64,000 bases of DNA from Pseudomonadota bacterium (GCA_043782755.1 JAYWAC010000199.1:8704-72703), one strand, 5' to 3'; counted from the stretch's first letter, positions 701 through 63,344 are shown. Translations and numbers: made by a program. Notes: generated from the sequence alone by a model not told the origin.

Positions 701-744
701 CAGCCAGGCGCCGCCGCCGCACTGATCATAGCGGCGGCCCCAGT

Positions 745-2847: not shown

Positions 2848-2876
2848 GCTCATTCCTCCGCGTTCGACGAGCGCAT

Positions 2877-3272: not shown

Positions 3273-3306
3273 AGTCAGTGTGTGCTTGCGTGCAGCATCC
3301 GCCTGA

Positions 3307-3765: not shown

Positions 3766-3838
3766 GGATCCCTCTTTCGAAGAATCTTAACCGCAATGCC
3801 GTCCACCTGGCGTGGGCGGCATTGCGACGCCGTGGGTC

Positions 3839-5842: not shown

Positions 5843-5847
5843 GGGGT

Positions 5848-7922: not shown

Positions 7923-8068
7923 AATGCCTCCTCGTGGCCAAAGTGGACGAAACGGGCCGTATTCTAGGGTGCTGAAAGTACGATGGCCTGCGCGGGCGGG
8001 CCATCACGCCCAAGCTTCAAGCCTAGTCCTTTGCACGCGCCTGTTCACCTACTTCGAATCACGCGCCA

Positions 8069-10189: not shown

Positions 10190-10200
10190 TTTGCTTATCC

Positions 10201-44762: not shown

Positions 44763-44763
44763 A

Positions 44764-47700
44764 TCAATACCGGCGATGCAGGGTCGGAAGGATGACGTCG
44801 CCACTCCAGATTACAGCGCCCTCGGCGTCGAGTCTGACGAGCCCAGCGAGCTGGTTGACGGCGCTCGGCGCCAGGACTTCGTTCAACAGTTCGGTGTCGG
44901 GCAGTTCCTCGAGTTCGTCGAAATCATCAGCCGGCGCCGCGTCTTTTTTGGCGGGCGGCGCAGTGGGCTTGGTCGTCGGGCGCGCGGCGGGTGCGGGACT
45001 CTGCTCCAGAGTCTCGAAACCTTCGTCGACATCGGCGGGCGGCGGCTCGGGCGCGGCCTTGACCGGCGGCGTCGCAGGCGCCTCCTCCAGCGGCGCGAAC
45101 AGGTCTTCGCTGCCCTCCTCCAGGGACGGCAGATCGGCGGCGGGCGCCGCCTTGCTGTCCTTGCCAGCCGCGGCGGCGGGCGGCTGTGCACCGGTGTCTG
45201 GCTTTTCCTCGGCCTCGATCACGTCCTGGAATTCGTCACCACCGACGTCGTTCTTTTTCTGCTTCTCGAGATAGGCGTGCAGCTGGGTCTGGTAGTCGCG
45301 ATAGCTGGCGAGTTCTGCGCGGTACTGGCTGAGCAGCGCTTCGCCCTTGTCCTTTGGTGTCGCGCCACTCGCCATCGATTTCTCAATGGCGGCAATGCGC
45401 TGATCGAGACCGTCAATCAAGGTGGCCAATTGCTCCTCGGTGACACTGGGCGCACAACCCTCGGCGTCTTCGCACTGATCCAGCGACTTGGCGATACCGT
45501 CGCCCATCACCCCGAAGAGCGTGAGGTCTTCCTCGAACAGCGAGGAATCGACGAAGGCCACGGCTTGCAGAATGGTGAGAATGGCCGCCGGGTTGGGAAA
45601 GGACGCGCGGGTGTTCTGCAACAGATTGGCCGGTGCACCAAGCGCGGTCAGCGAACCGATAAGAGCGGTGGCGGTGACGTTGGTGGTCGACGCTTGCGCG
45701 CGTGACCGAACGTTGAAGTCGATGCGGGTCTTGGTGGCGCGCGCACCCTGCGCGACCAGCACTTCGCCACCCGCCAGATTCATGATCATGTTGGTCGAGT
45801 TCTGCACTTCATTGGTCGCGGCCAGCATCACGCGCCCACCGGTGAAGGTCACGGTATTGCCGCTGGTGGGTGCACTGATATTGCCGAGCTTCACACCACC
45901 GGGTAATCCATCATTGCCGGCCTGCACCTTGTCGCCCAGCGCCATCACGACGATGGTGCCATCACCCGGCGCGCCGGCGCCGACGGTGATGTTGTTGCCC
46001 TTGGAAAAATCCACCGTGCTGCCGATCAGCAGCAGATTGCCACCGGTCAAGAGCGATTCCGAGACCGTGATGTAGTCGGCCGGTGCGGACAACACCGTAC
46101 CTTTCAGGACATCGCCACCGGGCGCCGCAGCGAATTGACCGCCGATGGCGAGCGTGCCCTTGAAGTTACCGAACTTGTCAGCGGCGATGTGACCGGGACC
46201 ATCAACCAGGTCGATGAACATATCGGTGTTGGCGGTCGGCACGATGCTGAGCGTCACGCCGACATCGGCCAAAACCTGGTCGTTGAAATCAAAGATGTTG
46301 CTGGAGGACGCCAGCTTGACCGTGTTCTTGATGGTCAAGGGGCCATTGAAATGCAGATCCTGTGCGCTGACATCGACACCCAGTATCGTGGCGCCGTTGA
46401 AATTTAGATTGCGTCCGGTGACGGCACCCTGCAGCTCGGCGTTGGCACCGAAGCGCACATCACGCGCAGTGATGTTGCCGCGCAGCAGGGTATCGCCGTC
46501 GTAGCTTTGATCGGCGCCATTGGTCACGACGTTGTCGAAAGTTGCCTTGCCGCCCGCGACGTTCGATCCGAAGGCGCCATTGACCGTCACGTTGCCGCGC
46601 ACGGTGATGTCACCACTGCCGGTCGCGGTCAAGGTCAGCGGCGCGTTGTTGTTGATGTCGCCGACCACACGCAGGCCGAGATTGCCGACGTCGACATTGC
46701 TCTGGGCGAAACTCAAGCTGCTGGCAGTGACCGTGCCAACGACAGACGCTGGCGCGCCCGGCACGCTCAACACGCCGTTGCCGCTGGTGGTCAGAGCGTC
46801 GACGCCGCTGAACGCCAATTGATCGCTGGCCGCGCCGGGCACACCGCGCAACACGCCGGCGCCATCGCTGCTCAAGATCCAGGTCGCATCGACCAGTGAC
46901 TTCAATTCGTCCTTGGCGCCGGCGCCCATGTTGATAGTGTTGGTGGTACCGCTAGGCGCACCGGTCAAGGTCACGGCGTCGTTGCCGCTGCCGAGAGTCA
47001 AGGTTTCGACACCGGAGAAATCACCGGCGAAGGTGCTGCTGGTGGCGTTCATGCCCGCGTTCGTAGCACTGCTGATGCGCGCCGTGATGGCGGAGGTATA
47101 GGCACTCACGTCGACCAGGTCATTGCCCGCACCGAGATTCAAGCTACCAGCCACGCGCGCGCCGGCGCCAAAGGTCACGGTGTCATTACCGCCATTGGTG
47201 AGGATATTGCCGGCCCAGGTCGTGCCGGCCTGCAGCGTGACCGCGTCGCCGCCGGTTTCGCTGAAGCCAGTGGTCAGGCTCAAGCCGGCGTCACCGATGT
47301 GATTGATATTGATGGCGGAAGTAGTGGCCGCACCGCTGCTGCCGGTGATAGTCACCGTCAGCGCGTTCGCGCCGGTCACGGTGAATTGATCGGCGCCACT
47401 GCTGCCCAGCATGAAGTTGTGGGTGCTGGCGGTGCCGGCGACGAAATCGCCGCCGTCGATACCAACGAACAACTGCGGCGTGATATTGGACGACCCTTCT
47501 TCCTTGAAGATGAAGATGTCGCGCTTGTTGCCGCCACGGATGCTGAAGTTCTCAAAGGTGGTAGTGGCGGTAGCAAAGGTATTGCCGTAACGGCCGCGAC
47601 CGTTGCCGGTGATAATCCACACGGTGTCGATGTCGGCACCCTGCAATTGCGTGCCATTACCGATCACCCCATCGACGTCGAAATAAGTACCGCTGATCAG

Positions 47701-50700
47701 CGGCAGATCGGGCGGGCTGCTGATGGTGGCATCACGCACCGTGCCGGCCTGGCCACTGCCGGAGTCGTTGTCGGTCACGGCATTGACCAACACCAGATCC
47801 GAACCACTGTAGTCAAGCGTGTCGACACCGGTGCCGAGATTGATGCTGCCTATCAGGCGTGAAAATTCGCCAGAACTGGGGTTGGTTGGCGGTGAAGTCT
47901 CATGTGCGCCAAACAACACCGTGTCATTGCCATTCTCACCGAGAATGTTGGCGGTCAAGGTGGTATTGCTGCCGCCGTTAGCGATGATGATGAACACATC
48001 ATTGCCCGCGCCGCCGGCCAATTGGCCGAAACTGAGTGCGCCGCCGGTCGCAGCGGTGAAGGTATCAACCGCGCTGCCACCCTGTAGATTTTCAAAGTCC
48101 GTGAAGGTGAATTCTGGCGTGCCGTCCGGCGCGCCGTTAGGCGTGTCGTCGATCGTGCCCGCGCCGCTGCCGGTCAGATCCCACGCACTCTGCTGGTTGC
48201 GGCCCACCAATTTGTCGTTGGTGGCGGCGCTACCGATGAAGGATTCAAAGCCACTGAAATTCGCGAAGGTCGAGCTGCCATCGGCGGCGCTGCCGCTCTG
48301 CAGATTGACGGTGACCGCAGTGCCGCGCGTCTGATAAGTGAAGGTATCAAGGCCAGCGCCACCATCGACATTGCCGCTCACCGATCCCGCCACGGCGATG
48401 GTCACGCTATCGGCGCCACTGCCACCTTGCAGTTGTTCAAAGCCGGAAAAGTCGAACTCAACTGAACTCGGTGCGCCGACCGAGGTGTCATCAATGGTGC
48501 CGGCATTGGCGCCGGTCACGGTCCAGTTGCTGTCGTTATCAGTGCCGATCAGCCTGTCACCGCTGCCACTGCCGCCGACCAAGGTTTCGATGTTGGCGAA
48601 GTTGCCAATGTCGGTTGCGGTGAGATTGGCGAGATCGATCGTGACGGCGGTGGCGCGCGTCCCATAGCTGAGAGTGTCGTGACCACCGAGGCCGTCGATG
48701 GTGCCGCTCAAACTGCCACCGGTAGCGAGATTAAAGGTGTTGGCGCCGGCATTGCCTGTCAGGTTTTCGATGCCCGACCAGGTGCCACTCAAACCAGATG
48801 CCGTGCCACTGTTGGCGCCAGTCACGGTGTAAGTGTTGTTGCCGGCGAGCGTATCGTTGCCAGCACCACCGATGACCGTCTCGACGGCGGTGAAACTATC
48901 GACCACCAGACCATTGCCTATGCTGCCGGCATTGAGCGCGGTGGAGATGAAATCGAGATCGACGCCAAGGCCGCTGGCATCGATGCGATCGCCACTCGAC
49001 GCACCACCGACAATGGTGAAACCGCCGGGCGCGGTCGCGCTGACGATTTCATCGATGTTGAAATTCGAGGCCGTGCCGCTCTGACCAAAGCTGGCATCGA
49101 GGCTACTGACGGTGAGCGTGTTGCTGGTGAAATTCAGATCGCGCGCGGCGACCAGCGTGAAGTTGTCGGTCGCGACGTCGGTATAGGGGCCGGCCAGGGT
49201 CAGCGCAGCGCTAGCACCGGTAGTACGAATATCGACGCTGTCGGCGCCTGCGCCGGTGTCAAGATTCTCGACTGTCAACGAGACCGCCGAGGTGACGAAC
49301 ACATCGCCGCCGGAAGTCGCCTCCAACGCACTGCCACCAGTCAAGGCCACTCCCAGCGCGTTGACGCGGCTCACACCAAGGGTGCTGCCAGCGTCAAGTA
49401 TCAGGTTGGCACCACCACTCTTGGCCAGCACCGCACCGGCGGTGTCGCGTATCGCGCCGCTGCCGGCGGTGATGGTCTGTGCACCCGCACCATTGAAGGT
49501 GCTGGTGCCGGCGCCCTGGAAGATCACATTGCGCGCGGCACTCAAGTCGCTGTTGGTGGTGATGTTGTCGGCGATGATCAAATCGTCGCCCGCGCTCTGC
49601 ACATCGATGTCGCCAGTGGCGGTGATGGCCGTGCTGCCGGCAAGGATGAGATTGCCGGCCGCGCCGGCGGTCTTGGTCAAGCCGACGGTCGACAGCGTGC
49701 CGCCCTGCGCGTCCAGAGTCTGCGCCACCGCGCCATCCAGCGTGCCGACGCCAGCGAGAGTGATATTGCCGCTGGCGGTCAAATCACCGGCCAGCTCGAA
49801 GGCGTTGTTGATCGAGAGGTTGCCGTCGTTGACCGCGACATCACCGCTGATGTGGATGAACGTCGGGCTGACCAAGGTGAGGTTGCCGTTCGACGCCTTG
49901 CTCAAGGAATCGATGGTCAAGCTGCCGCTGCCATCGGTGCCGGCACGCAAGGTTTGATTGGCGCTACCGCTGGCGGCCACCACCACAGTGATGCCGGACA
50001 AGTCGAGATCATCGGCCGCCGCCAATGAACCCAAGCCGAGGTCGAGCGTGCCACTGCCGCCACCGAGTGAGCCGATGGTGGCGTTCTGATCGTTGATGTC
50101 AAACGTTGCACCGACCGCGATCGTGATCGCACCGGCATTGCCGACGCCGCCGGCCGCACCGAGCTTGAGTACACCGGCATTGATCTGCGTGTCGCCGGCA
50201 TAGCTGTTGTTGCCGGACAGCACCAGGGTATCGGGTCCGATCTTGCTCAGAGTATTGCCGGCGCCACCGCTGATAGTGCCGCTTATCGTGAAATCGATAT
50301 TGCCTGCCGCGCCGTCGTCGACGTTGATAGTGGCGGCCGTGGCGAGATTCACCGCGCCGCTCAAGGTGCCTGTATTGCTCGCTTTCAAAGCGCCGCTGCC
50401 ACCATCGCCATTGCCGTTCAGGCTGAGATCCTCGTTGGAGGTGCCGGTGAAGGCGACTTCCAAAGTACCGCCATTGACGGTCGTGCTGCCGGTCGCGCTG
50501 CCGAGACTCGCGGTCGACGCGGCGCGCAGCGTGCCGCCCGAGATCAGTGTTACGCCGTTATAACTGCCGGTGCCGACGGTCAGCGTTTGGGTGCCGCTGC
50601 CTGACTTGCTCAGCGACAAAGTATCGCCACCGACTTCAGTGATATCACCTGCGTAGCTGCCGCCACCGCCGGAAATATCCAAGCTCGCGGTATCGGCGAC

Positions 50701-53700
50701 CGCCGCCGAATTGTTGGTCACTACACTGCCCGCCACGCCATCGAGCTTGCTGACAGTCTGATCGAAACCAGCGAGGTTGAAGATCGCCCCCGATGCCGTG
50801 AGGTTGAGGCCGCTGCTGTTGGCGAGCACATCGGCGACACCCGCTTTCAGCGTGCCCTGGGCGACATTGGTCGCACCGCTATAGGTATTGGCGCCATTGC
50901 TCAGCACCAAGGTGCCGGCACCGCTCTTGGTCAGACTGCGCGCGCCACCGCTCTCGCCGATGGCGGTGTTGATGGTCAAGGTGCCGGCGCCACCGAGGGT
51001 CGCATTGTCGATCAGCGTCACGCTCACGCTGTTCGCTAGCGAAGATGTACCGGTGGCGGTCAGCGCGCCGACGCCACCGTTACCGCTGCCGCTCAAATTG
51101 ACGCTCTCGCTACTCGCCAGCGCGAGACCGTTGAGATCGAGTGTACCGCCGTTGGCGGTGGTCTGGCCGGCGGTGGTGCCAAGACTGGCAGCGGTACTGA
51201 TGCTGAGCGTGCCGCCGCTGATGCTGGTGGCGCCGGCGTAGGTACCACTCACCACCGACAGACTTTGCGCACCGCTGCCAGACTTGGTCAGCGACAAATC
51301 GTCGAGAGCGTTCTGCGTGATGTTGCCAGCGTAGCTACCGCCACCACCGCTGATGGTCAGCGTCGCGGCGCTGCCGCCGCCACCTGCGTCATTGGTCACC
51401 ACGCTGCCAGCCACGCCGTCGAGTTTGGTGAGAGCCTGGTTGAAGCCCGCCAAATTCAAACGCGCGCCCGACGCAACACTCACACCTGAACTGTTATCGA
51501 GCACGTTGCCCGCGCCTGCCGCAAGCGTGCCCTGGGCGATCGTGGTGCCACCGGCATAGCTGTTGTTGCCGCTCAGTACCAGCGTACCTGCGCCGACCTT
51601 GCTGAGATTGCCGCTACCGCCGATCACCGCGTTGATGGTCAAGGTGGCGGTCGTACCGATAGCGCCCGTGCCCGTCAAGACGATGGCATTGCCGGCCGCC
51701 ACCGCGTTGCTGCCGATCAAGGCACCGGCGCCGCCCGCGCCGCTGCCGGTCAGATTGATGGTCTCACTGCTGGCCAGCGCGAGGCCGCCGAGATCGAGCG
51801 TGCCGGTGCTGGCGGTGGTCTGGCCGCTGGCGTTGCCGAGACTGGCGGCGGTGTTGATCAACAGTGTGCCGCCACTGACCGTGGTGGCGCCGTCATAGCT
51901 GCCGGTCGCGACGGCGAGAGTCTGGGTGCCCGATCCGGATTTGGTGAGCGACAAGGTGTCGCTGCCGTTCTCGGTGATGTCGCCGGAGAAACTGCCGCCG
52001 CCGCCGGTGATGGTCAAGGTCGCCACATCAGCGATGTTGCCGGCGTTATTGGTCACCACCGTGCCGGCCGCACCGTCGAGTTTGCCGAGCAGTTGGTCGA
52101 AGCCGGCCAGATTGAAGGTCGCGCCCGCGCCGTTCAGGATCAGACCCGAGGTCGCACCGAGTACATTGTTCGCGCCGGCCTGCAGGGTGCCACCATTGAC
52201 GGTCGTCGCGCCGCTATAGGTGTTGCCGCTGCCCGACAGGATCTGGGTACCGGTGCCGGCCTTGGTGAAGGACAAGGTGTCGGTGACGGTCTGAGTGATA
52301 TTGCCGGCATAGTTGCCGCCATTGCCGGTGATGGTGAAGGTCGCGACGTCACCGACATTGCCGGCGTTGTTGGTGACGATGGCGCCCGCCACACCCGTCA
52401 CGGCGACGATGGACTGATCGAAACCGGCGAGATTGAAGGTCGCGCCTGATGTCGTGAGATTGAGTCCCGCGCTATTGGTCAGGATGTTGGCGGCGCCGGC
52501 GGCGAGCGTGCCACCCGACACCGTCGTCACACCGGTATAGCTATTGGTGCTAGCGAGCACCTGCGTGCCGGTGCCGGACTTGGTCAAGGACAAGACGTCG
52601 TCGGCCGATTCGGTGATATCACCCGCGAACGAACCGCCGCCGGCGGCGATGGTGAGCGTGGCGGCGGCATTGCTGGTACCGACCGCATCGTCATTGGTGA
52701 CGGTGCCGGTGCCCGACAGCGAAGCGATGGTCTGGTTAAAACCGTGCAGATTAAAAGTCGTACCGGCGGCGAGGGTCAGATTGGTCGAGGCCGCGAGTGC
52801 GTTGGCGAGACCGATGGCGAGTACACCCTGGCTCAAGTCCAAGCCACCAAGCGTGGTGGCAACGCCGAGCTGCAGGGTGCCGGGACCGGACTTGGTCAAG
52901 GTGCCGGCGCCCGAGATGCCGACCGTGGTAACCGCGAGCGTGCCGGCGGCCTGGGAAATATTGGCGGTGCCTGCGCTCGTCATGACCATACCGCCGGTGA
53001 CGGTCGTGGTGCCTACTGTCGAGTGCAGCAAGGTCGGGTTGTTGCCGCCACTGAAGGTGATGGCGTCAGCGATGGTGGTGCCGCCGGGTGTGGCGAGTTC
53101 AAGGGTCGCGCCGGCGTTGGCGGCATTGTTGATGACGATGCCGCCACTGCTGCTGCCGAGACTGGCGGCGGTGGTGACTTTGAGCGTGCCGCCGGTGACC
53201 GTGGTCGCGCCATCGTAGGTGCCCGTGCCGACCGACAACACCTGCGTACCGCTAGTCGATTTGGTGACAGACAAAGTATCGGTGCCGTTCTCGGTGATGT
53301 TACCGGCATAGCTGCCGCCGCCGCCGGTAATGGTCAGGGTCGCGACGTCGCCCGTGCTGCCGACATCGTTGGTCAACACTGCGCCCGCCACGCCGTCGAG
53401 CTTCACTATCGATTGGTCGAAGCCGGCGAGATTGAAAATCGCGCCCGCATTGCTGATGTTGAGTCCCGCGCTCTGCGCGAGCAGATTTGCGACGCCGGCT
53501 TTCAACACGCCGCCGCTGATGGTGGTGACGCCCGTAAAGGTATTACCACCGCCGGACAAGATCTGCGTGCCGGTGCCGGACTTGGTCAGCGAGAAAGTAT
53601 CCCCACCGACCTCCGTCAAGTTGCCGGCGAAACTGCCACCGCCGCCGGTGATATTGAGCGTCGCGCTGTCGGCCACCGCCACTGAGTTGTTGGTGACCGT

Positions 53701-56700
53701 GGTGCCCGCCACGCCATCGAGTTTGGCGATGGCCTGATCGAAACCGGCGAGATTCAAACTCGCGCCAGCAGTGCTCAAGTTCACACCCGCACTATTGTCG
53801 AGGACATCGGCCGCACCGGCCACCAAAGCGCCCTGAGCGATGATGGTCGCACCGCTATAGCTATTGGCGGCATTGGCCAGCACCAGGCTGCTGGTACCGG
53901 CCTTGGTGAGACTGCGTGCGCCGCCGCTTTCGCCGATGGCGGCATTCATGGTCAAGGTGCCCGCGCCACCGATGGTGGCATCGCCGCTCAAGTTCACGGT
54001 ATTGGTCGCCGCCAGCGAGACTGTGCCGGTGCTGGTCAAGGCGCCGACACCGCCGTTACCGGTGCCGCTCAAATTCAAGGTCTCGGTCGAAGCCAAGGCC
54101 ACGCCGTTCAAATTCAAAGTGCCACCGTTAGCGGTAGTCTGTCCGGTGGCGGTGCCGAGGCTCGCGCCGGTGCTGATCGATAAGGTGCCACCGCTGATGG
54201 TGGTCGCGCCGCCGTAGGTACCGTTCACCACGGCCAGACTCTGGGTGCCCGTGACCGACTTGGTGAACGACAAGGTATCGCTGCCGTTCTCGGTGATATC
54301 ACCGGCGTAAGCGCCGCCGCCAGCGGTGATGGTCAGGGTCGCGACATCGCCAGTATTGCCAACGTCATTGCTCACCACCGCGCCCGCCACGCCATCGAGT
54401 TTAGCGATGGACTGATCGAAGCCGGCCAGATTGAGCGTCGCGCCGCTGACCGACAGATTGACGCCCGTGCTGTTGTCCAGCACGTTGGTCGCGCCGGCGG
54501 CGAGCGTGCCTTCGTTCACCGTGGTCGAACCGCTATAGCTATTGTTGCCGATCAAAGTGACGAGACCGGCACCGGCCTTGGTCAAGGAGCGCACACCGCT
54601 TTCGCCGATAGCCGCGTTGATGGTGAACACGCCCACGCTGGAGATAGTGGCATCAGCGGTCAAGGTGATGGTGTTGCTCGCGGCGATCGATGACACACCG
54701 GTGCCGAGCAACGCGCTGCTGTTGCCGAGGCTGATGGCCTCGCTGCTGGCGAGATTGAGACTGCTGAGATTAAGCGTGCCGCCATTGACGAGCGTGCCGC
54801 CGACGGCGGTGCCGAGACTCGCGGCGGTGGTGATAGTGAGCTCGCCGCCGGTGACGCTGGTAACGCCATCATAGCTGCCGGTGCCGACCGACAAGGTCAA
54901 CACGCCACCAGTGGATTTGGTCAGCGACAAGGTGTCGGTGCCGTTCTCGGTGATATCACCGGCGTAGGTGCCACCACCGGTAACGGTGAGCGTGGCGCTA
55001 TTGGCGGTGTTGCCGGCGTCATTGGTGACGACGCTGCCCGCCACGCCGTCAAGTGCATCGACGGTCTGATCGAAACCGGCCAGATTGAAAGTCGCGCCGG
55101 CGGCCGTGAGGTTGAGATCGCCTGGACCAAGTACATTGTTCGCACCGGCCTGCAAAGTACCGCCACTGACGATGGTGTTACCGGTGTAGGTACTGCCGCC
55201 ACCGGACAAAATCTGCGTGCCGGTGCCGGACTTGGTGAGCGTCAAGATATCGCTGCCGTTCTGCGTCAGGTTACCCGCGAAGCTGCCGCCGCCAGCGGTG
55301 ATGGTCAAGGTCGCGACATCGGCACTGGCGCCAGCATCGTTGATGACGACCGTGCCGGTCACGCCATCGAGTTTCTTCAAGCTTTGATCAAAACCCGCGA
55401 GATTGAATCGCGCACCCGACACCGAGAGATTGAGTCCACTGCTGTTATCGAGCACATCGGCCGCGCCCGCTGCGAGCGTGCCGGCGCTGACCGTCGTCGC
55501 GCCGGTGTAGGTGTTGTTGCCCGCCAGGATCAGACTGCCCGCGCCGATCTTGGTGAGCGCGCGCGGACTACCGCTTTCGCTGATCACCGCGCCTATCGTC
55601 AGCGTGCCCGCGCCGCCGATCGACGTATCGCCATCCAGCACCACGCTATTGCCGCTGTCGATCGAGGCCGTGCCGGTTTCGCTCAATGCGCCGATGCCCG
55701 CGTTGCCAGTGCCGCCCAAATGAATGGTCTCGCTGCCGCTCAAGGAAACGCCATTCAATTCCAAGGTGCCGCCATTGGCGGTGGTCGCACCAGTATTCGA
55801 ACCGAGACTCGCGGCGGTGATGATGCTGAGGGTGCCGCCGATGATGGTGGTAGTGCCGTCGTAGCTACCCGTCGCCACCGACAGACTCTGAGTGCCGGTG
55901 CCCGACTTGAGCAGTGACAGGGTATCGCTGCCGTTCTCGGTGATGTCACCGGCATAGCTGCCGCCGCCGCCGGTGATGGTGAGCGTGGCCGTATCGGCGC
56001 TCGCGCCCGCGTCATTGGTGACCACCGCACCCGCCGCGCCATCGAGTTTGGCAATCGATTGATCGAAGCCCGCCAGATTGAATACGCCGCTCGCACCCAT
56101 GTCGAGACCCGTGCCATTGGTCAGCACGTTCGCGATGCCCGCTTGCAAGCGACCAGCGCTGACATGGGTCAGGCCGTTGTAGTTCTGCGCGGCGGTCATG
56201 ACCAAGCTACCGGCACCGATCTTGGTCAAGGACAAACTGGCCGCGCCATCGCTGAGTGCACCGACCTCCAACACGCCGCCGGCGTTCGCCACGTCGATCG
56301 TGGTGTCGTCGGTGGCACCGACGTTGGTCAAGGTTATAGTCCCCGACAAGGTCAGGGTATTGGCAGTCGAATGTCGCAGCGCGGCCGAGCCACCGCCATT
56401 GCCTTCGATGCTGAGGTTTTCAGCGATGGTGGCGTCCGCACCCAAGGCAAATTCGAGCTGTGCGTCGTTGGCCACCGTGGTGCCGCCCAGCGCGTCGCCG
56501 AGACCGCCCGCATCGGTGACCTTGAGCAGGCCGGCGTTGACCGTAATGGTGCCCGCCGCGCCGATGAAGTCGGCGGAATTGTCTGCCGCCAGGACCAGGG
56601 TGCCGCTGCCGGTCTTGGTCAGCGCGCGCGTGCCGCCGTTATCGATCGTGGTCAAGAGCGTGAGTGTGCCGCTGCCACCGATGGTGGCATTGCCGCTCAT

Positions 56701-59655
56701 GGTCAACACATTACTGGCACCAATCGAGGACGTACCGGTCGCGGTCAGGGCACCGACATTGCTGATACCACTGCCCTTGATATCGATGGCTTCGGTGCTG
56801 GCCAGCACCAGGTTGTTCAAGTTCAAGGTGCCGGTAGCGGACACCACCGTGTCATCGGTCGCGTCACCGAGGCTGTTGGCAGTGGTGATGGTGAGCGTGC
56901 CGTCATTGACGGTCAGCAAACCTGCGTAGGTGGTTGCGCCGATACTGAAAGTCTGCGACCCGCTGCCGGTCTTCACGATCGAGATATCGTCGGCGGTGTT
57001 ATCGAAGACGGTGCCACTGAAAGTCTGAGCATTGCCGCCATTGATGGTCAGCGTGACAGGGTTGGCGCCGGGGTCGTCATTGCTGACCACACCGCTGCCC
57101 GCCAGACCGGTCACAGTCTGATTGGTAGTCTCCATCTCGAAGCGCGCGGTCGCGCCGCTGATATTCAAGATGCTATTAGCGAATACGTTGTCGACGCCGG
57201 CGACGATGCTGCCGGCACTCAAGGTGGTGGTACCGGAATAAGTGCTGGAGTTGTTCAGAGTCAGCAGGCCGCTGCCGAGTTTGTCGAAGCCGAAAGTCGC
57301 GCCGCTGATCACACCATTCAGTATCAACTCGGTGCCCGGCACGTCGATGTGGCTGTTGGCGGTCAGCGCGATATTGCCGTCGAAACTGGCAGAACCCGTA
57401 CCGCGCAAGGTGCCGCCGGCCAAGGTCAAGGCTTCGGCGCCGACACTGACGTTGTCGAGATCGAGCGTGCCCGTGCCACTGACGGTGGTGCCGCCATTGG
57501 TGGTACCGAGACCATCGGCATTGGTGACATGCAATACACCGGCGCTGACGGAAGTCGCACCGATATAGCCATTGGCCTCGCTGAGCGTCAGCGTGCCGTC
57601 GCCAATCTTGCTCAAGGCAGTTGAACCGACGATCAATTTACCTGCCACCTGGGTGGCGGTGCCGGCGCGGATATCGGCGCTGAAGGTCGCGCCACCCGTG
57701 GTGATCTCACCGAAAGAGCCACCCGTACCGGAGATCAGCGTGACGGACCCGGTAGTCGCGCCGCCGATATTGGTTTTCACGCCACCGGCAGTCAGCGTGC
57801 CGGACGCGGCGCTGAAGGTCACCGCGCCGCCCTTGGTCTCGATGATGTCGTTCTGATCGGCGAACACCACGTTGCCGCCGGTCGAGCGTAGGGTCAGGCT
57901 GCCGGTGGTGAGATCGAGATGAACCGCGTTGTTGGTGGTGACTGCGCTGGACGAGGCGCCCGTCACATCATTGACCGTGAGCAGGCCCGTCGCTTCGAGA
58001 ATGATGTTGGTGGTGACAGCGAGGCTGTCGACCTTGCCCCAGCTTATGGTGTTGGGCGCGGCGTCGGCTTCGCCCGCAGCCAGATTCGCGTCGACATTGG
58101 AGATAGTGCCGTCCAGAGAACCGCCGTTATTGGCGTCGATGATGGTGAGGGTCGACGGATCGAGCAACAGTGTGCCGGGCGCACCGCGCGCTGCACTGGT
58201 ATCGACCTCACCGGCGAAAGTCAGATCCTGTTTGCCCGACACTTCCACCATCCCACCATCGCCACCGCGCTTGCCGCCCTGCGCGGAAATCTTGCCATGA
58301 AAGCGCGTGCTGTCGTCGGACCAGACCACGACCTTGCCGCCGTCGCCGGTGCCGGTGGCGTCGGCCTTGAGAGTGGCCGCGCTGCCGACGAAGACTTGTT
58401 TAGCGTTGGTGATACTCGAATTCGCACCGTGCAGGTCGCCGCCGAGCAGCGCTTCGCCACCGCCCTTGTGACCGGAGACATTTAGCGCGGCATCGAAATT
58501 GAAAGCGAGCTGTTCGGCTGTCGCCTTGACGCGACCGCCGGTGGCGCGCGTGCTGGTCGCCGAGACCTGACTGCCTTGATTGAAGTCCAGCTTGGTGCGG
58601 GCTGCGACATCAATGCTGCCGCCATCACCGCCGCGCGCGTCGGCGGCGAGCGTGCCGCGATTTTCGATTTCATTGCCACGGATGGCGATCTGCCCACCCT
58701 TGTCCGTGGCGGTTGCGGCCGAGGCGTCGATGGTGCCGGTGTTCAACACCGACGCGCCGGATCCTGTACCGACCAGCAGAATCTTGCCGCCGCTCTTCTC
58801 GATGCGGCCAGCCTTGAGCACGCCGGCATTGTTGATGGCCTTGTCGAACACGCCGGCCGCTGCGCTCGCCGTGATCAGAATCTGGCCACCGTCGGCATTG
58901 ATCTGACCACTGTTGGCGACCTGGTCTGCAAGCTTGGCGGCGTTGTCGATGACCGCCTTGTCGACTTTGAAACGCAACAGCCCATCGCCATCGAAATCGA
59001 CCGTGGCCTGTTCACCCGCCAGCAGATTGACGCGGCCGGCGGTGGCCATGATTACGCCTTCGTTGGCGACGGATTTGCCGATCAGCGCGACATCGCCGCC
59101 CTTATCGGCTGTGATGCTGCCCTGATTGACGACGCGACCATCACCGCCGTCCTGCGCGCTCAGCTGGTAGCGACCACTCATGAACTCATCGATGCCGACG
59201 TGCATCGCGCCCGCAATCAAGCCGCCGACGTTCACTTCCGCGCCGGGCCGGAAGAACACGCCATTGGGATTCATCAACACGACTTGGCCATTGGCCTTGA
59301 TCTGGCCAAATATCTCGCTCGGCTTCTGATCGAAAATGCGGTTTAGCGCGCTGGACTTCGCGTTAGGTTGCTGGAAACGCACCTGCTCGCCCTTGGCAAC
59401 ATCGAAGCTCTGCCAGTCGATGGCGGTGCGCTGGCTGTGCTGGCTGATGGTGGTGACACGGTGGGCGGCGTCCTGACTGATGTTGGCGCGGCCGGCACGC
59501 ACCTGACCGCCGACCGGCGCAGCGGCGAGCGGCGCGCTGGCAAAGGTCGCGACGAGTCCGGGCAGAAGCGCGAGCTGCACTGAACGGGCGAGCCGCGTGA
59601 GACGGAATGGCGACCGTGCCGCAGCGCCGTCGGCGATGTGATTACGCATATTCAT
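44764..59655 (-). CDS. Giant two-partner-secretion exoprotein (TpsA / filamentous-haemagglutinin-family adhesin), about 4960 aa
   Basis: AAGGAG RBS 7 nt before the ATG at 59655. N-terminal extended signal region; TPS domain with NPNGV motif (QVVLMNPNGVFFRPGAEVNVGG). About 24 tandem PATR repeats (L.K.G.GTLTLSG.N.YTG.TTV..GTL). RTX-like GGxGxD nonapeptides (GGAGNDTLA, GGSGADSVT, GENGNDTVL). C-terminal coiled coil and Pro/Glu-rich region. Confidence 0.9.
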   Translation of the reverse strand: MNMRNHIADGAAARSPFRLTRLARSVQLALLPGLVATFASAPLAAAPVGGQVRAGRANISQDAAHRVTTISQHSQRTAIDWQSFDVAKGEQVRFQQPNAKSSALNRIFDQKPSEIFGQIKANGQVVLMNPNGVFFRPGAEVNVGGLIAGAMHVGIDEFMSGRYQLSAQDGGDGRVVNQGSITADKGGDVALIGKSVANEGVIMATAGRVNLLAGEQATVDFDGDGLLRFKVDKAVIDNAAKLADQVANSGQINADGGQILITASAAAGVFDKAINNAGVLKAGRIEKSGGKILLVGTGSGASVLNTGTIDASAATATDKGGQIAIRGNEIENRGTLAADARGGDGGSIDVAARTKLDFNQGSQVSATSTRATGGRVKATAEQLAFNFDAALNVSGHKGGGEALLGGDLHGANSSITNAKQVFVGSAATLKADATGTGDGGKVVVWSDDSTRFHGKISAQGGKRGGDGGMVEVSGKQDLTFAGEVDTSAARGAPGTLLLDPSTLTIIDANNGGSLDGTISNVDANLAAGEADAAPNTISWGKVDSLAVTTNIILEATGLLTVNDVTGASSSAVTTNNAVHLDLTTGSLTLRSTGGNVVFADQNDIIETKGGAVTFSAASGTLTAGGVKTNIGGATTGSVTLISGTGGSFGEITTGGATFSADIRAGTATQVAGKLIVGSTALSKIGDGTLTLSEANGYIGATSVSAGVLHVTNADGLGTTNGGTTVSGTGTLDLDNVSVGAEALTLAGGTLRGTGSASFDGNIALTANSHIDVPGTELILNGVISGATFGFDKLGSGLLTLNNSSTYSGTTTLSAGSIVAGVDNVFANSILNISGATARFEMETTNQTVTGLAGSGVVSNDDPGANPVTLTINGGNAQTFSGTVFDNTADDISIVKTGSGSQTFSIGATTYAGLLTVNDGTLTITTANSLGDATDDTVVSATGTLNLNNLVLASTEAIDIKGSGISNVGALTATGTSSIGASNVLTMSGNATIGGSGTLTLLTTIDNGGTRALTKTGSGTLVLAADNSADFIGAAGTITVNAGLLKVTDAGGLGDALGGTTVANDAQLEFALGADATIAENLSIEGNGGGSAALRHSTANTLTLSGTITLTNVGATDDTTIDVANAGGVLEVGALSDGAASLSLTKIGAGSLVMTAAQNYNGLTHVSAGRLQAGIANVLTNGTGLDMGASGVFNLAGFDQSIAKLDGAAGAVVTNDAGASADTATLTITGGGGSYAGDITENGSDTLSLLKSGTGTQSLSVATGSYDGTTTIIGGTLSIITAASLGSNTGATTANGGTLELNGVSLSGSETIHLGGTGNAGIGALSETGTASIDSGNSVVLDGDTSIGGAGTLTIGAVISESGSPRALTKIGAGSLILAGNNTYTGATTVSAGTLAAGAADVLDNSSGLNLSVSGARFNLAGFDQSLKKLDGVTGTVVINDAGASADVATLTITAGGGSFAGNLTQNGSDILTLTKSGTGTQILSGGGSTYTGNTIVSGGTLQAGANNVLGPGDLNLTAAGATFNLAGFDQTVDALDGVAGSVVTNDAGNTANSATLTVTGGGTYAGDITENGTDTLSLTKSTGGVLTLSVGTGSYDGVTSVTGGELTITTAASLGTAVGGTLVNGGTLNLSSLNLASSEAISLGNSSALLGTGVSSIAASNTITLTADATISSVGVFTINAAIGESGVRSLTKAGAGLVTLIGNNSYSGSTTVNEGTLAAGATNVLDNSTGVNLSVSGATLNLAGFDQSIAKLDGVAGAVVSNDVGNTGDVATLTITAGGGAYAGDITENGSDTLSFTKSVTGTQSLAVVNGTYGGATTISGGTLSISTGASLGTATGQTTANGGTLNLNGVALASTETLNLSGTGNGGVGALTSTGTVSLAATNTVNLSGDATIGGAGTLTMNAAIGESGGARSLTKAGTSSLVLANAANSYSGATIIAQGALVAGAADVLDNSAGVNLSTAGASLNLAGFDQAIAKLDGVAGTTVTNNSVAVADSATLNITGGGGSFAGNLTEVGGDTFSLTKSGTGTQILSGGGNTFTGVTTISGGVLKAGVANLLAQSAGLNISNAGAIFNLAGFDQSIVKLDGVAGAVLTNDVGSTGDVATLTITGGGGSYAGNITENGTDTLSVTKSTSGTQVLSVGTGTYDGATTVTGGTLKVTTAASLGSSSGGIVINNAANAGATLELATPGGTTIADAITFSGGNNPTLLHSTVGTTTVTGGMVMTSAGTANISQAAGTLAVTTVGISGAGTLTKSGPGTLQLGVATTLGGLDLSQGVLAIGLANALAASTNLTLAAGTTFNLHGFNQTIASLSGTGTVTNDDAVGTSNAAATLTIAAGGGSFAGDITESADDVLSLTKSGTGTQVLASTNSYTGVTTVSGGTLAAGAANILTNSAGLNLTTSGATFNLAGFDQSIVAVTGVAGAIVTNNAGNVGDVATFTITGNGGNYAGNITQTVTDTLSFTKAGTGTQILSGSGNTYSGATTVNGGTLQAGANNVLGATSGLILNGAGATFNLAGFDQLLGKLDGAAGTVVTNNAGNIADVATLTITGGGGSFSGDITENGSDTLSLTKSGSGTQTLAVATGSYDGATTVSGGTLLINTAASLGNASGQTTASTGTLDLGGLALASSETINLTGSGAGGAGALIGSNAVAAGNAIVLTGTGAIGTTATLTINAVIGGSGNLSKVGAGTLVLSGNNSYAGGTTIAQGTLAAGAGNVLDNSSGVSVASGARLNLAGFNQALTKLDGVAGSVVTNDAGGGGSAATLTISGGGGSYAGNITQNALDDLSLTKSGSGAQSLSVVSGTYAGATSISGGTLSISTAASLGTTAGQTTANGGTLDLNGLALASSESVNLSGSGNGGVGALTATGTSSLANSVSVTLIDNATLGGAGTLTINTAIGESGGARSLTKSGAGTLVLSNGANTYSGATNVAQGTLKAGVADVLANSSGLNLTASGAIFNLAGFDQTVSKLDGVAGSVVTNNSAAVADTASLDISGGGGSYAGDITEVGGDTLSLSKSGSGTQTLTVGTGSYNGVTLISGGTLRAASTASLGSATGSTTVNGGTLEVAFTGTSNEDLSLNGNGDGGSGALKASNTGTLSGAVNLATAATINVDDGAAGNIDFTISGTISGGAGNTLSKIGPDTLVLSGNNSYAGDTQINAGVLKLGAAGGVGNAGAITIAVGATFDINDQNATIGSLGGGSGTLDLGLGSLAAADDLDLSGITVVVAASGSANQTLRAGTDGSGSLTIDSLSKASNGNLTLVSPTFIHISGDVAVNDGNLSINNAFELAGDLTASGNITLAGVGTLDGAVAQTLDAQGGTLSTVGLTKTAGAAGNLILAGSTAITATGDIDVQSAGDDLIIADNITTNSDLSAARNVIFQGAGTSTFNGAGAQTITAGSGAIRDTAGAVLAKSGGANLILDAGSTLGVSRVNALGVALTGGSALEATSGGDVFVTSAVSLTVENLDTGAGADSVDIRTTGASAALTLAGPYTDVATDNFTLVAARDLNFTSNTLTVSSLDASFGQSGTASNFNIDEIVSATAPGGFTIVGGASSGDRIDASGLGVDLDFISTALNAGSIGNGLVVDSFTAVETVIGGAGNDTLAGNNTYTVTGANSGTASGLSGTWSGIENLTGNAGANTFNLATGGSLSGTIDGLGGHDTLSYGTRATAVTIDLANLTATDIGNFANIETLVGGSGSGDRLIGTDNDSNWTVTGANAGTIDDTSVGAPSSVEFDFSGFEQLQGGSGADSVTIAVAGSVSGNVDGGAGLDTFTYQTRGTAVTVNLQSGSAADGSSTFANFSGFESFIGSAATNDKLVGRNQQSAWDLTGSGAGTIDDTPNGAPDGTPEFTFTDFENLQGGSAVDTFTAATGGALSFGQLAGGAGNDVFIIIANGGSNTTLTANILGENGNDTVLFGAHETSPPTNPSSGEFSRLIGSINLGTGVDTLDYSGSDLVLVNAVTDNDSGSGQAGTVRDATISSPPDLPLISGTYFDVDGVIGNGTQLQGADIDTVWIITGNGRGRYGNTFATATTTFENFSIRGGNKRDIFIFKEEGSSNITPQLFVGIDGGDFVAGTASTHNFMLGSSGADQFTVTGANALTVTITGSSGAATTSAININHIGDAGLSLTTGFSETGGDAVTLQAGTTWAGNILTNGGNDTVTFGAGARVAGSLNLGAGNDLVDVSAYTSAITARISSATNAGMNATSSTFAGDFSGVETLTLGSGNDAVTLTGAPSGTTNTINMGAGAKDELKSLVDATWILSSDGAGVLRGVPGAASDQLAFSGVDALTTSGNGVLSVPGAPASVVGTVTASSLSFAQSNVDVGNLGLRVVGDINNNAPLTLTATGSGDITVRGNVTVNGAFGSNVAGGKATFDNVVTNGADQSYDGDTLLRGNITARDVRFGANAELQGAVTGRNLNFNGATILGVDVSAQDLHFNGPLTIKNTVKLASSSNIFDFNDQVLADVGVTLSIVPTANTDMFIDLVDGPGHIAADKFGNFKGTLAIGGQFAAAPGGDVLKGTVLSAPADYITVSESLLTGGNLLLIGSTVDFSKGNNITVGAGAPGDGTIVVMALGDKVQAGNDGLPGGVKLGNISAPTSGNTVTFTGGRVMLAATNEVQNSTNMIMNLAGGEVLVAQGARATKTRIDFNVRSRAQASTTNVTATALIGSLTALGAPANLLQNTRASFPNPAAILTILQAVAFVDSSLFEEDLTLFGVMGDGIAKSLDQCEDAEGCAPSVTEEQLATLIDGLDQRIAAIEKSMASGATPKDKGEALLSQYRAELASYRDYQTQLHAYLEKQKKNDVGGDEFQDVIEAEEKPDTGAQPPAAAAGKDSKAAPAADLPSLEEGSEDLFAPLEEAPATPPVKAAPEPPPADVDEGFETLEQSPAPAARPTTKPTAPPAKKDAAPADDFDELEELPDTELLNEVLAPSAVNQLAGLVRLDAEGAVIWSGDVILPTLHRRY
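50050..57625 (-). repeat. Tandem array of about 24 autotransporter-associated beta-strand (PATR) repeat units, about 105 aa / 315 nt each, inside tpsA
   Basis: Recurrent protein motif ...TKSGTGTQ.LSG.N.YTG.TTV.GGTL.AGA.NVL...GLNL...GA.FNLAGFDQS..KLDG.AG.VVTNDAG...D.ATLTITGGGGS.AG.ITENG.DTLS. The similar periodic shadow ORFs on the + strand (for example 50888, 51563, 53864, 54542) show the DNA-level periodicity. Confidence 0.7.
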
Positions 59656-59907
59656 GCGGTCGCTCCTTCCTCGGCATTCGAGATCGATCGAATGTCCGTG
59701 GCCCATGATGGTGTGCGGGCCGTGTTGTAGTGTGATTCAAGCGCCGCACATCGGCGGGCGGCTGAGAAACTGCCGCGCTTAACATAGTGCGCGCCCCAGC
59801 TACGCGAAACCGTTACATATTCCCGCATACCCGCCGACGGCGGTGTGCAGGCCTTGCGCACCTTACCGTCACGTCCTCCGGTCTGACGCCGCACACCCGT
59901 TCCTCGC

Positions 59908-61938
59908 TCAGAAGAACAGGTTGAAATCCAGCCAGTATTTCGGTCCCCAGCCGCCTTGCGGACGCGGGCTGCTGCCGACCGGTGCGGCCATGGTGAGCTT
60001 GGTGGAAAACCGCTTGGGATTATTGAACGACAGTGCGACACCGACGGAATTGAAATTCCCAGATTTGCGTTCGGTGGGCGTGAGCGCGCTGTTCAGATAG
60101 CCCGAAGCGACATCGTAAAACATAGAAAACTGCACCAGCTCGCCCCAGGTGCGATTGCCGAAAGCCGGCACGTCGGAGATAAACGGGGCGTTGATGATCC
60201 ACTCCACCGAACCGAAAATAGCGCGATCGAACAATTTCTCGGTTGGACGATAGCCGCGCACGTTGTCCGGACCGCCGACGTCGTATTGCTCGAGCGGTAC
60301 CAGCAGATCGGGCGACCACATCACCTCGGTGGTGAACAGCAGGTTGTGATTCTTGAGTTTGTCCCACAGCGGCGTCAGTGCCTGGAAGCGCGACAGTCGC
60401 AGCATGACCTTGTTGAAATCGCCTTCGGCGAACTTGCCGTTGCCGCCTTGGCGGGTCGGCGGTACGAAGGCTGGGTTCTTGCCCATCGCGCCGAACAGAT
60501 CATTAAAACCGTGGGAGATCTCGAGACTGCCGGTATTCAGTCCGCCAAAGCGCGCATCGACCGAATCGAAATTGAATTCACCCGAAGCGACCGCCAAGCT
60601 GTCGATGTTCTGCTTGCGGCCATCGGCCTTGGTGCCGCTGCGTTTCTTGGCAAAGCGCGCGGTGGCGCTGAAATTCATTAGGCGGCTGCGGATGAAACTC
60701 TTGGTCAACGAGACGTTGTAGTTGCGAATGTCGCTGTGGATTTTGGCGTCGCGAAACTGACCGCCGACGTCGAATTGATTGCGGTCCGCGCCGAAGCCGA
60801 GCTGGGTGTCATATAGCAGCGGGATCGGGATCTGATAATCGAGCGCATAGAACCAGGTGTTGGCCGGCGCCACGGTGCGCTGGATGGTGGTGGTGAATTT
60901 GTCGCCCTGACCGAGCGGATCGTTGACCGTCACGCGGCCGAGCTCACGATTGAGGCCGGTCTCGCGGATGCCATGGTTGTCCCAACGCAAGGCCGCCTCG
61001 ACACGCTTCTCGTCCTGCACCTTCAACATCATGTCAGCGCTACCGACGCGGGTGCCGGGCTGGAACACACCGAAAGACGACAAGCCCGGGTTGTCCGACA
61101 CGGTGAGCAGCGCGGTCTCAATCGATTCCTTGGTCACCGGCTCGCCAACGAGCTTGCCGAATGGTCGCGTTAGCACGGCGGGCTTGTACATCTTGTTGCC
61201 CTCGGTCACGACTTTGCCGAGCACGCCTTCCATGACCTGAATCTTGACCTCGCTACTTTCCACCGACTGCACCGGCACAAAGGCTTGCGCCAGGATCAGG
61301 CCATGGTCGCGGTAGTACTTAGTGACGGTGTCGGCTACTTCCTGCAGGCGACCGACGGTGAAACCGTCCGGCCGCTCAGCGAGTTTGGCGTCGATCAGGG
61401 CCTGCACCTCAGCGACCGCGATGTTGTGCTTGGGCCGGTCGATGACGCCTTCGAGCACGAAGCGCTTGACCTCGACCTTGTCGCCATCGTCGATTTCCAA
61501 AGGCCTGTCGGCCAGTGCCGGCACCGAGAAGGTCTCGGGCGGCGGTGCCTTGGGCGGCTCGCGCGGCTTCTCGCCGGGTCGGATCGCGCCGGGCTTGGCC
61601 GCGTCGGGGAGATCGACGGCGGCCGCTAACGAGCTTTCATTGACGGCCATGGCGGCGGCCAACTCGGGGCGCGCCGGGCCGGGCCGCGCGCTCGGCACTG
61701 CGGCAGAAGACGCAGGAGAAAGTTCTTGTGTAGCCACCACTTGCGGACCAGCCACCGACATATCGAAGGCTGGACGGATGGCTCCGGGACGGGCCGTGGC
61801 GAGATTGTCATCTGGTTCGACGACGGCGGCAAACGACAGGCTCGCACGCGCCACGATGCCTGCCATGCAAAGTGCATGCAGGCAGCGCAACGCTGGCCCT
61901 CGCCTAGAGTCGCCCACTATATGCATAAGACCATTCAA
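59908..61938 (-). CDS. TpsB outer-membrane transporter (ShlB/FhaC/HecB family; POTRA domains + 16-strand barrel)
   Basis: POTRA region VKRFVLEGV...; conserved loop-6 VRGY motif (DNVRGYRP); C-terminal ...YWLDFNLFF aromatic terminus. Start codon uncertain (MNGLMH / MHIV). Confidence 0.85.
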   Translation of the reverse strand: MNGLMHIVGDSRRGPALRCLHALCMAGIVARASLSFAAVVEPDDNLATARPGAIRPAFDMSVAGPQVVATQELSPASSAAVPSARPGPARPELAAAMAVNESSLAAAVDLPDAAKPGAIRPGEKPREPPKAPPPETFSVPALADRPLEIDDGDKVEVKRFVLEGVIDRPKHNIAVAEVQALIDAKLAERPDGFTVGRLQEVADTVTKYYRDHGLILAQAFVPVQSVESSEVKIQVMEGVLGKVVTEGNKMYKPAVLTRPFGKLVGEPVTKESIETALLTVSDNPGLSSFGVFQPGTRVGSADMMLKVQDEKRVEAALRWDNHGIRETGLNRELGRVTVNDPLGQGDKFTTTIQRTVAPANTWFYALDYQIPIPLLYDTQLGFGADRNQFDVGGQFRDAKIHSDIRNYNVSLTKSFIRSRLMNFSATARFAKKRSGTKADGRKQNIDSLAVASGEFNFDSVDARFGGLNTGSLEISHGFNDLFGAMGKNPAFVPPTRQGGNGKFAEGDFNKVMLRLSRFQALTPLWDKLKNHNLLFTTEVMWSPDLLVPLEQYDVGGPDNVRGYRPTEKLFDRAIFGSVEWIINAPFISDVPAFGNRTWGELVQFSMFYDVASGYLNSALTPTERKSGNFNSVGVALSFNNPKRFSTKLTMAAPVGSSPRPQGGWGPKYWLDFNLFF

Positions 61939-62080: not shown

Positions 62081-63109
62081 TTAGGGCTGGACGGCAGCAG
62101 TCGGCGCGGCGGCCGGTGCCGGCGCGGCCTGCTTGATGAGATCCTGACGCCAAGTCTCGAGCGCGTCGGCAGCCGGCGCCTCGACCGGATACTCTTTCTC
62201 TATCTTCTCGATCGCGGCCTGACGGACCTTGGCCATCGCTTCCTGCACCATGCGTGCGCGCAACTGATCCCGTACGCGCTCGAAGTCCAGCATCTCCGCT
62301 TCAACGGTCGCGCCACGTTTCAAGATATGCAGGCCAGTCTCGGACGCTATCGGCTCGCTGACCTGGCCAGTCTTGAGTTTCTTCAGGGCCTCGGCTATCG
62401 GCGGCAGCAGATCGGCCGATTTGAGCAAGCCCATGTAGCCATCGTTGACGCGGCTCGCCTCGTGAGCGGAATACTGCTTGGCCAGCGCGCCAAAATCGCC
62501 CTTGCCGCCACGCAGCTCGTCGGACACGCGGTTGGCCCGCGCCCAGGCAGTCTTGACTTCCTTATCGGGCGCGGCGGGATCGAGCGGGATAAAGATCTGC
62601 CACAGATGCACTCGCTCCGGCACGCGGAAGGCATCGGGATTCTTGTCATAGGCTTCGCGCACCTGGCTGTCGCTCGGGAATTTCGGATCGAGATTCACGC
62701 GTACCACCTGATTCAGATAGGACTCGACCAGCACACGCTGGCCGGCACGCTCCATGACGGTTTTGATCTGCGCGTTCTCATCAGCCTTGTTGGCATAGGC
62801 CGCCTTCAAGACCGCCTGATTGAGGGTTTCCTGATGCACGAACTGTTTGAAGACATCGGCGGAAGTCAGGATCTCGTTGCGACGCGGTGCATCGACGATA
62901 CTCAATACCTCGCCGAGCAGCTTGGCATCCAGCGTGGCGGTCGTGGAGCGGGTTTTAGCTTCGCTGGCGGCCGCTTTTACGGCGGGGGTATGTGGCTCTT
63001 TGGCCGCTGCGATCGTGTCGGGCGCGAGCAGGAAGCGCTGGCCGAGTGCGCCAGCAACGATGAGTAGCGCGCCGAACAAGAGTGCGGCGGGGGTCGACAG
63101 ATTTTTCAA
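62081..63109 (-). CDS. Parvulin-type peptidyl-prolyl cis-trans isomerase (SurA/PpiC-like periplasmic chaperone, N-terminal membrane anchor)
   Basis: N-terminal hydrophobic anchor PAALLFGALLIVAGAL; rotamase domain HLWQIFIP...GDFGALAKQYS...GYMGLL...GLHILK. Apparent TTG start. Confidence 0.72.
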   Translation of the reverse strand: MKNLSTPAALLFGALLIVAGALGQRFLLAPDTIAAAKEPHTPAVKAAASEAKTRSTTATLDAKLLGEVLSIVDAPRRNEILTSADVFKQFVHQETLNQAVLKAAYANKADENAQIKTVMERAGQRVLVESYLNQVVRVNLDPKFPSDSQVREAYDKNPDAFRVPERVHLWQIFIPLDPAAPDKEVKTAWARANRVSDELRGGKGDFGALAKQYSAHEASRVNDGYMGLLKSADLLPPIAEALKKLKTGQVSEPIASETGLHILKRGATVEAEMLDFERVRDQLRARMVQEAMAKVRQAAIEKIEKEYPVEAPAADALETWRQDLIKQAAPAPAAAPTAAVQP

Positions 63110-63344
63110 GGCACTCGCTCCCGAAGTCGCACATTGCGACGATGGACAGGGATTCTAGCCGGCAATTCGAACCCGCGCGAAGCGTGCAGCGCGCCGTTAG
63201 CAGCCCTTGCCTGAAACAGAAATTTTGTTGATGCTGAGTAGCTTATTCCATAAACTTCGGCGCACCCTCAAACAACGCACCTGCACGCGGAACGCGAAGA
63301 TCCGCGCCACCAATGAACTTAAGGCCCGACGGCAACGAGAGCGA

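Follow-up and report, generated by a model that had tools for sequence, protein, structure and literature searches.

A diverged array of 23 PATR-containing units in a giant two-partner-secretion exoprotein, collinear between species

A 64,000-nucleotide stretch of a Pseudomonadota bacterium (GCA_043782755.1, JAYWAC010000199.1:8704-72703; hereafter the window) carries on its minus strand the gene tpsA (44764..59706), which encodes a giant two-partner-secretion exoprotein of 4980 amino acids (aa). Within this protein lies an array of 23 PATR-containing units (aa 698-3258; 49933..57615, minus strand; 7.7 kb). We conclude that the array is most probably the ancient beta-helical shaft of a giant type Vb exoprotein and that it is now stably inherited. 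Comparisons of its sequence among units and between species show that it was built long ago by duplication of single units and of multi-unit blocks and that it then diverged under purifying selection. The sequence at each array position is conserved and specific to it, and we therefore regard the array as a fixed structure and not as a length-variable contingency region.

Composition of the PATR array

The presence of PATR repeats within tpsA, proposed in an earlier reading of the DNA alone (the original prediction), is confirmed by two profile libraries. PF12951 (PATR) matches TpsA with 276.2 bits (cut-off 27) in 18 significant stretches, and TIGR02601 with 317.9 bits (cut-off 19.85), likewise in 18 stretches, far above the refuting threshold of fewer than five set in that prediction. 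A hidden Markov model (HMM) built on TpsA's own copies identifies 23 strong units within aa 698-3185, the full units reaching aa 3258. The array had been placed at 50050..57625, which agrees with the present limits within about 100 nt; its count of about 24 units is corrected to 23.

The units begin at aa 698, 807, 910, 1029, 1160, 1265, 1384, 1490, 1595, 1708, 1814 and 1933 (units 1-12) and at aa 2040, 2147, 2270, 2374, 2480, 2587, 2701, 2806, 2925, 3032 and 3153 (units 13-23), with a spacing of 103-131 aa. They belong to two interleaved types. Type 'a' is about 106 aa long, is present in 11 copies and carries the motif FNLAGFDQ ... TLTITGGGGSYAGDITENG, and type 'b' measures 113-123 aa with the motif TAASLG ... 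GNGGVGAL. Starting at aa 1160, the types succeed one another as a b a a b a b a a b a a a b a b a b, while the first four units and the last unit of the array are more divergent than the rest. The predicted recurrence of a single motif about every 105 aa therefore does not describe the array, since the full motif is confined to the 11 'a' units, which alternate irregularly with the longer 'b' units.

Nearly all the DNA-level self-similarity of the gene falls in a core of 18 units (aa 1160-3152; 50251..56229, minus strand), delimited by the coverage of off-diagonal high-scoring segment pairs (HSPs) per bin and by unit typing. Self-BLASTN of tpsA returned 54 off-diagonal HSPs, 25.9 kb in total, whose offsets lie close to multiples of 106-119 aa, so that the periodic lines anticipated in a self dot-plot are indeed present. 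In a control in which the array was codon-shuffled, a single HSP was left, located outside the array. Tandem Repeats Finder reported no long-period array in the sequence, because the units are less than about 70% alike.

The array is carried by a protein that qualifies as a TpsA on all sequence criteria tested. The gene is a single open reading frame (ORF), uninterrupted across 14.9 kb and collinear with orthologs in three relatives (L001, L095 and L096), and the domain content of its product according to Pfam and NCBIfam consists of TPS and PATR and nothing else. The TPS secretion domain (aa 74-316; 58759..59487, minus strand), which includes the NPNG motif at aa 146, is recognised by PF05860 (E 1.7e-36) and TIGR01901 (E 2.9e-21). 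Directly upstream of tpsA on the same strand lies tpsB, the gene for its outer-membrane transporter partner (59908..61938; PF03865 ShlB, E 2.9e-23; PF08479 POTRA_2, E 9e-11). The TPS domain and the adjoining ShlB/POTRA_2 gene together identify a two-partner (type Vb) secretion pair, in which export of TpsA would be expected to depend on TpsB.

Unit divergence and conservation of the array between species

In DNA the units are 62-75% identical, those of the same type with a median of 66% and a maximum of 75%. Protein identity is 26-61% for neighbouring units and reaches 75% in the closest pair of the whole array (aa 1814 and 2806). Between the closest units the synonymous divergence (dS) is 0.7-1.0, with a nonsynonymous divergence (dN) of about 0.2; the duplications are old. 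The ratio dN/dS among units is about 0.25, indicating purifying selection.

The best self-HSP extends over 2074 nt at 69% identity with an offset of 2970 nt. It joins two blocks, X (gene nt 4153-6211, aa 1384-2070; 53496..55554, minus strand) and Y (gene nt 7123-9187, aa 2374-3062; 50520..52584, minus strand), the second of which is also present in the ortholog L095. Each unit has its best partner about 990 aa away, and this distance and the long self-HSP together show that the array grew partly by an ancient duplication of a multi-unit block of about 2 kb.

Stretches of exact identity are short. An exhaustive exact-repeat search found that the longest direct repeat in the gene is 28 nt (54939..54966 and 54282..54309, minus strand), encoding YAGDITENG. 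Exact repeat pairs number 10 at a length of at least 23 nt, all in-frame, four at 25 nt or more and none at 30 nt or more. All those of at least 23 nt lie on conserved peptide motifs, flanked by DNA that is about 30% divergent.

The array was compared between species, with relatives at 70% (L001) and 78% (L095) DNA identity. L001, a contig of a metagenome-assembled genome (MAG), is collinear with TpsA over aa 10-1822 at 68% identity with 20 gap positions and the same unit spacings, and its out-of-register alignments reach about 35% at most. In all ten units compared with L001 the positional ortholog is the best cross-species match, and positional orthologous units are 60-75% identical between species. 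L095 is the syntenic locus on a 567-kb contig of GCA_964267835.1 (CAXWJM010000027.1), where SapC, Sel1 and leuCD are again the neighbours. Its alignment is a single collinear HSP across gene nt 3286-14901 (aa 1096-4967) at 77.6% identity, and inside the array (units 5-23 at the DNA level) the largest indel is 9 nt and the net length change +24 nt. These two loci, independently assembled, jointly cover 23 of 23 units, and none has been gained, lost or reordered. The proposed variation of adhesin length through the array finds no support in these between-species comparisons.

Gene conversion was considered as well, as 'a' paralogs looked slightly more alike within a genome than the same pairs did across species, and was rejected. 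Quartet site patterns comprise 259 sites of the orthology class and 86 of the concerted class against a third (homoplasy) baseline of 68, an excess that is not significant (86 vs 68). Of the concerted sites, 57 fall at codon position 3, a sign of shared codon bias.

The L095 ortholog (1..11623) is called as at least six consecutive ORFs of 2051, 765, 381, 218, 503 and 540 aa, and, compared with the window gene, several stretches of 30-90 codons in it are out of frame. The first protein-database search listed no match above about 1217 aa and did not return the 2051-aa fragment, from which we infer that the protein database omits long proteins. Because of this length limit, full-length orthologs were recovered via contigs. 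A metagenome scan with the post-array region found no relative, and a second scan with an N-terminal alignment found only distant TPS relatives of 34-50% identity without PATR arrays.

The history of the array also fits, in part, a Periscope-type variable stalk, that is, a recombination-prone array whose unit number is often altered by slipped-strand or RecA recombination and thereby tunes the length of the protein. The array has evidently expanded by duplication, including the block of about 2 kb, and it holds the 10 in-frame exact repeats of at least 23 nt. PATR number differs among strains in ShdA, from 4 to 6 (PMC9704523), and in Brucella Bma proteins, BmaA among them (PMC8111173). To start recombination, bacterial RecA requires exact identity over a minimal length (MEPS) that does not exceed about 30 bp (PMC8918686); the exact repeats of 23-28 nt lie near this size, so rare in-frame deletions or duplications are possible. 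These strain differences and near-MEPS repeats weigh against a stably inherited shaft, as do several other points. The relatives compared are separate species (70-78% DNA identity), so the stability of the array is shown at that level. The frameshifts of L095 mean that it is either a pseudogene or an error-prone assembly with long-read indel errors. Each of the five short-read contigs from relatives has an end within the array or just before it. Finally, secretion, rod shape and adhesive function are all properties that we infer.

We nevertheless consider a variable stalk very unlikely. Periscope Proteins are defined operationally by tandem repeats of more than 50 residues with at least 80% identity (PMC8201768), a value above both the 26-61% of adjacent units and the maximum of 75% found here. 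Variation in length rises with the identity of the repeats, and neighbours in ordinary multidomain proteins are less than 50% identical (PMC8201768; PMC9704523); the array behaves like this ordinary multidomain class and not like the Periscope class. Mismatch repair is known to abort strand exchange that enters divergent flanks (PMC8918686), and here each block of identity, always shorter than 30 nt, is bordered by about 30% divergent DNA in which exchange would be aborted. The dS of 0.7-1.0 for the closest unit pairs, the unchanged number and order of units in L001 and L095, and quartets free of a gene-conversion signal argue in the same direction. The original prediction of a recombination-prone region is thus not supported: rare recombination events are possible, but the array is not a hotspot.

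The contig ends bear on a different concern, raised in the same prediction, that such repeats break short-read assemblies and leave the true copy number uncertain. In its strongest form, the repeats would have confused the assembler and the copy number in the window would be collapsed or expanded. The contigs of relatives break at aa 1822 (L001), aa 1167 (L002), aa 577 (L003) and aa 589 (L004), and L096 begins at aa 3012. An artefact of this kind is exceedingly unlikely, since with no exact repeat beyond 28 nt any assembler using k >28 resolves the array. The 14.9-kb ORF is intact and the two independent assemblies agree on unit count and order, so the copy number in the window is not in doubt. 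Repeat-induced breaks in the relatives were not demonstrated either: no internal sequence is more than 79% identical to the terminal 150 nt of any broken contig, and two of the contigs (L003 and L004) break off upstream of the array. Contigs of 6-24 kb can be expected to split a gene of 15 kb, the exact repeats in the assembled parts of the relatives' contigs are at most 21 nt, and strain heterogeneity in metagenomes is an equally good explanation of the contig ends. L003 and L004 both break near aa 580, which hints at strain-level divergence beyond the conserved N-terminal region.

Taken as a cautionary case, tpsA illustrates that a visibly periodic adhesin gene is not automatically hypervariable or mis-assembled. 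The deciding measures are the DNA identity between units, the longest exact repeat and the collinearity of orthologs, and all three indicate a stable array here.

Predicted fold and relation to known systems

We modelled one a-b-a triplet (aa 1160-1489) with AlphaFold2, using an alignment of five paralogous triplets. The model is confident and all-beta, with about 30 strands and no helices (predicted local distance difference test, pLDDT, 90.1; predicted template modelling score, pTM, 0.88). The leading Foldseek matches in the PDB are nearly all beta-helices: EspC, EspP, IcsA, Ag43, Hap, Hbp, the TPS domains of HxuA and EtpA, pectate lyases and tailspikes. The statistics of these matches are weak (E at least 7e-3, template modelling score at most 0.37), the probability for IcsA, 0.97, being the highest among them. 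The only PDB sequence match is to the PATR-containing passenger of IcsA (5KE1, E 3.6e-7). The conserved residues of the units form a Gly/Thr/Leu/Asn pattern typical of a solenoid core, and PATR has been placed in the beta-helical stalk of autotransporters, where it is important for efficient secretion of the passenger (PMC9977779).

These observations suggest how the protein may work. The N-terminal TPS domain would target TpsA to the adjacent TpsB channel, and the 23 PATR-containing units (aa 698-3258) would then fold successively into a long right-handed beta-solenoid outside the cell. At 4.8 Å per rung and 20-33 residues per rung, the result would be a rigid rod of roughly 40-60 nm, carrying the unannotated C-terminal region of about 1700 aa. 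By analogy with autotransporters, the PATR cores probably aid efficient export and folding.

The same beta-helix could serve a different function, as a multivalent binding array whose units are ligand-binding or self-associating modules. Such a role would be consistent with the individual conservation of every position between species (60-75%, dN/dS about 0.25) and with the presence of self-associating adhesins, Ag43 and Hap, among the beta-helical passengers matched by structure. However, no binding motif or ligand domain was found in the protein (no RGD, and only PATR and TPS from Pfam), and structural constraint alone accounts for the solenoid-core residue pattern. We therefore consider this alternative fairly unlikely and retain the beta-helical shaft as the preferred interpretation.

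Among known systems, the type Va passengers that contain PATR (Shigella IcsA, Salmonella ShdA, Brucella BmaA/B/C and Serratia Ssp) share with TpsA the 32-residue PATR core (PF12951/TIGR02601) in a beta-helical stalk. Unlike them, TpsA has an N-terminal TPS domain and a separate TpsB in place of a C-terminal barrel, and it carries 23 units in an interleaved a/b supra-repeat, compared with 1-6 in the characterised examples considered. Pfam scans of the whole TpsA and of its C-terminal 1794 aa in pieces detected no 12-stranded autotransporter barrel, which rules out a classical type Va autotransporter. A shaft of 23 PATR units in a two-partner-secretion protein shows that PATR is not confined to export through an autotransporter barrel, in keeping with a general role in the folding and export of beta-helices.

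The FHA-type TpsA proteins (Bordetella FhaB, E. coli EtpA, Haemophilus HMW1 and HxuA) resemble the protein described here in the NPNG-containing TPS domain, the adjacent POTRA/ShlB TpsB, the very large size, the predicted beta-helical shaft and the small number of cysteines. The shaft differs, being made of PATR units; Pfam, which finds only PATR and TPS, gives no FHA-type repeat family (Fil_haemagg_2, PF13332). CdiA/BcpA toxins of contact-dependent inhibition are likewise giant TpsA proteins secreted by an adjacent TpsB. A CdiA-type toxin is ruled out, as there is no VENN, VDNN or (L/V)YVN motif, no Pfam toxin domain and no FHA repeats; in contrast to CdiA loci, the gene downstream of tpsA belongs to the SapC family, with no sign of an immunity gene. 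Periscope Proteins (SasG, Rib and Sgo_0707, in a set that includes ShdA) have in common with TpsA the long rod-like tandem-repeat stalk of a bacterial surface protein, but their repeats are at least 80% identical and vary in number between close strains, whereas adjacent units here are 26-61% identical and their number is conserved across species.

PATR in TpsA is a minority architecture. PATR arrays are absent from all of about 50 TPS-domain relatives (34-50% identity), two of which carry two PATR units, and about 10 of the 120 top database homologues are annotated with PF12951 plus PF05860. The combination is thus already in databases, under the generic name 'filamentous hemagglutinin N-terminal domain-containing protein'; a literature search on PATR together with TpsA yielded only unrelated papers and none that discusses this architecture. 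An exact-sequence look-up of TpsA, TpsB and SapC returned no match. One of the relatives, L003 (CAMCBY010000026.1), is titled as a Klebsiella pneumoniae MAG, yet it encodes a 77%-identical TpsA ortholog; the other close relatives of TpsA are labelled only as Gammaproteobacteria or Pseudomonadota MAGs, and L003 is likely to be mis-binned or mislabelled.

C-terminal region, neighbouring genes and antisense reading frames

The C-terminal part of TpsA, of about 1720 aa (aa 3259-4980; 44764..49932, minus strand), matches no Pfam family above threshold and nothing credible by sequence in the PDB; a search of 5.8 billion proteins found just four homologues of its last 678 aa. Towards its end come a predicted helical segment, an acidic tract rich in Pro/Ala/Glu and a tail of about 40 aa, and two of the three cysteines of TpsA (C4745 and C4751) lie in this part. 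A weak second repeat region follows the array at 47.9-48.9 kb of the window (minus strand; about aa 3600-3900), with a period of about 110 aa and motifs such as GG.G.D.L.G...W.VTGANAGTIDD. For the stretch from aa 3709 to 3795, which takes up about 256 nt in the window, L096 has about 100 nt (2093..2194), a difference of about 52 aa that is not seen in L095.

The genomic context of the locus is chromosomal. Directly downstream of tpsA lies a SapC-family gene (43983..44804, minus strand; PF07277, E 8.9e-66), whose ORF overlaps the tpsA stop, followed by a Sel1-repeat gene and leuCD. The order tpsA, SapC, an 86-aa ORF, Sel1 and leuCD is kept in the relatives L095 and L096, and the conserved adjacency of tpsA and SapC suggests a functional link between SapC and the exoprotein. 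Directly upstream of tpsB is a parvulin-type peptidyl-prolyl isomerase (PPIase) gene (62081..63109, minus strand; Pfam Rotamase, E 1.4e-17), whose product may be a dedicated periplasmic chaperone for the giant TpsA, resembling the pairing of Bordetella Par27 with FHA. A 234-aa ORF without Pfam match (63243..63947, minus strand) lies upstream of the PPIase gene.

It is conceivable, though we think it quite unlikely, that this locus and its few relatives form an uncharacterised type Vb subclass. Such a subclass would combine a type Va-style PATR solenoid with a fixed, position-specific a/b supra-repeat, a lineage-restricted C-terminus of about 1700 aa without known domains, a conserved downstream SapC-family gene and an operon-linked parvulin chaperone, and would perhaps represent a surface-coat or S-layer-like system rather than a classical adhesin.

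The strand opposite the array carries serially similar ORFs, which the original prediction had rightly described as misleading. The two ORFs that it quoted exist exactly as given: MAPLLSTKVPAPLLVRLRAPPLSP... (50888..51241, plus strand) and MAALASTRLLVPALVRLRAPPLSP... (53864..54217, plus strand), each antisense, 117 aa long, with a TTG start and no Pfam match. Their antisense frame is the one in which third codon positions coincide with sense third positions, where the sense GC content (GC3) is 0.79. Two antisense frames are unusually open, with 42 stops (the frame of the MAPLLSTKVPAPLLVRLRAPPLSP and MAALASTRLLVPALVRLRAPPLSP ORFs) and 10 stops per 2561 codons. The second of these open frames contains the largest shadow ORF (521 aa, TTG start; 56059..57624, plus strand), which has no Pfam match, and the equivalent frame in the ortholog L001 is broken by six stops. 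A Pfam scan of seven shadow ORFs gave no family match. The antisense ORFs arise as a side effect of GC-rich codon usage in a coding sequence that is periodic. They do echo its periodicity, as had been proposed, but at the DNA level that periodicity is weak, the units being 62-77% identical and Tandem Repeats Finder reporting no long-period array. Plus-strand ORFs between 50 and 57.7 kb can safely be disregarded in annotation.

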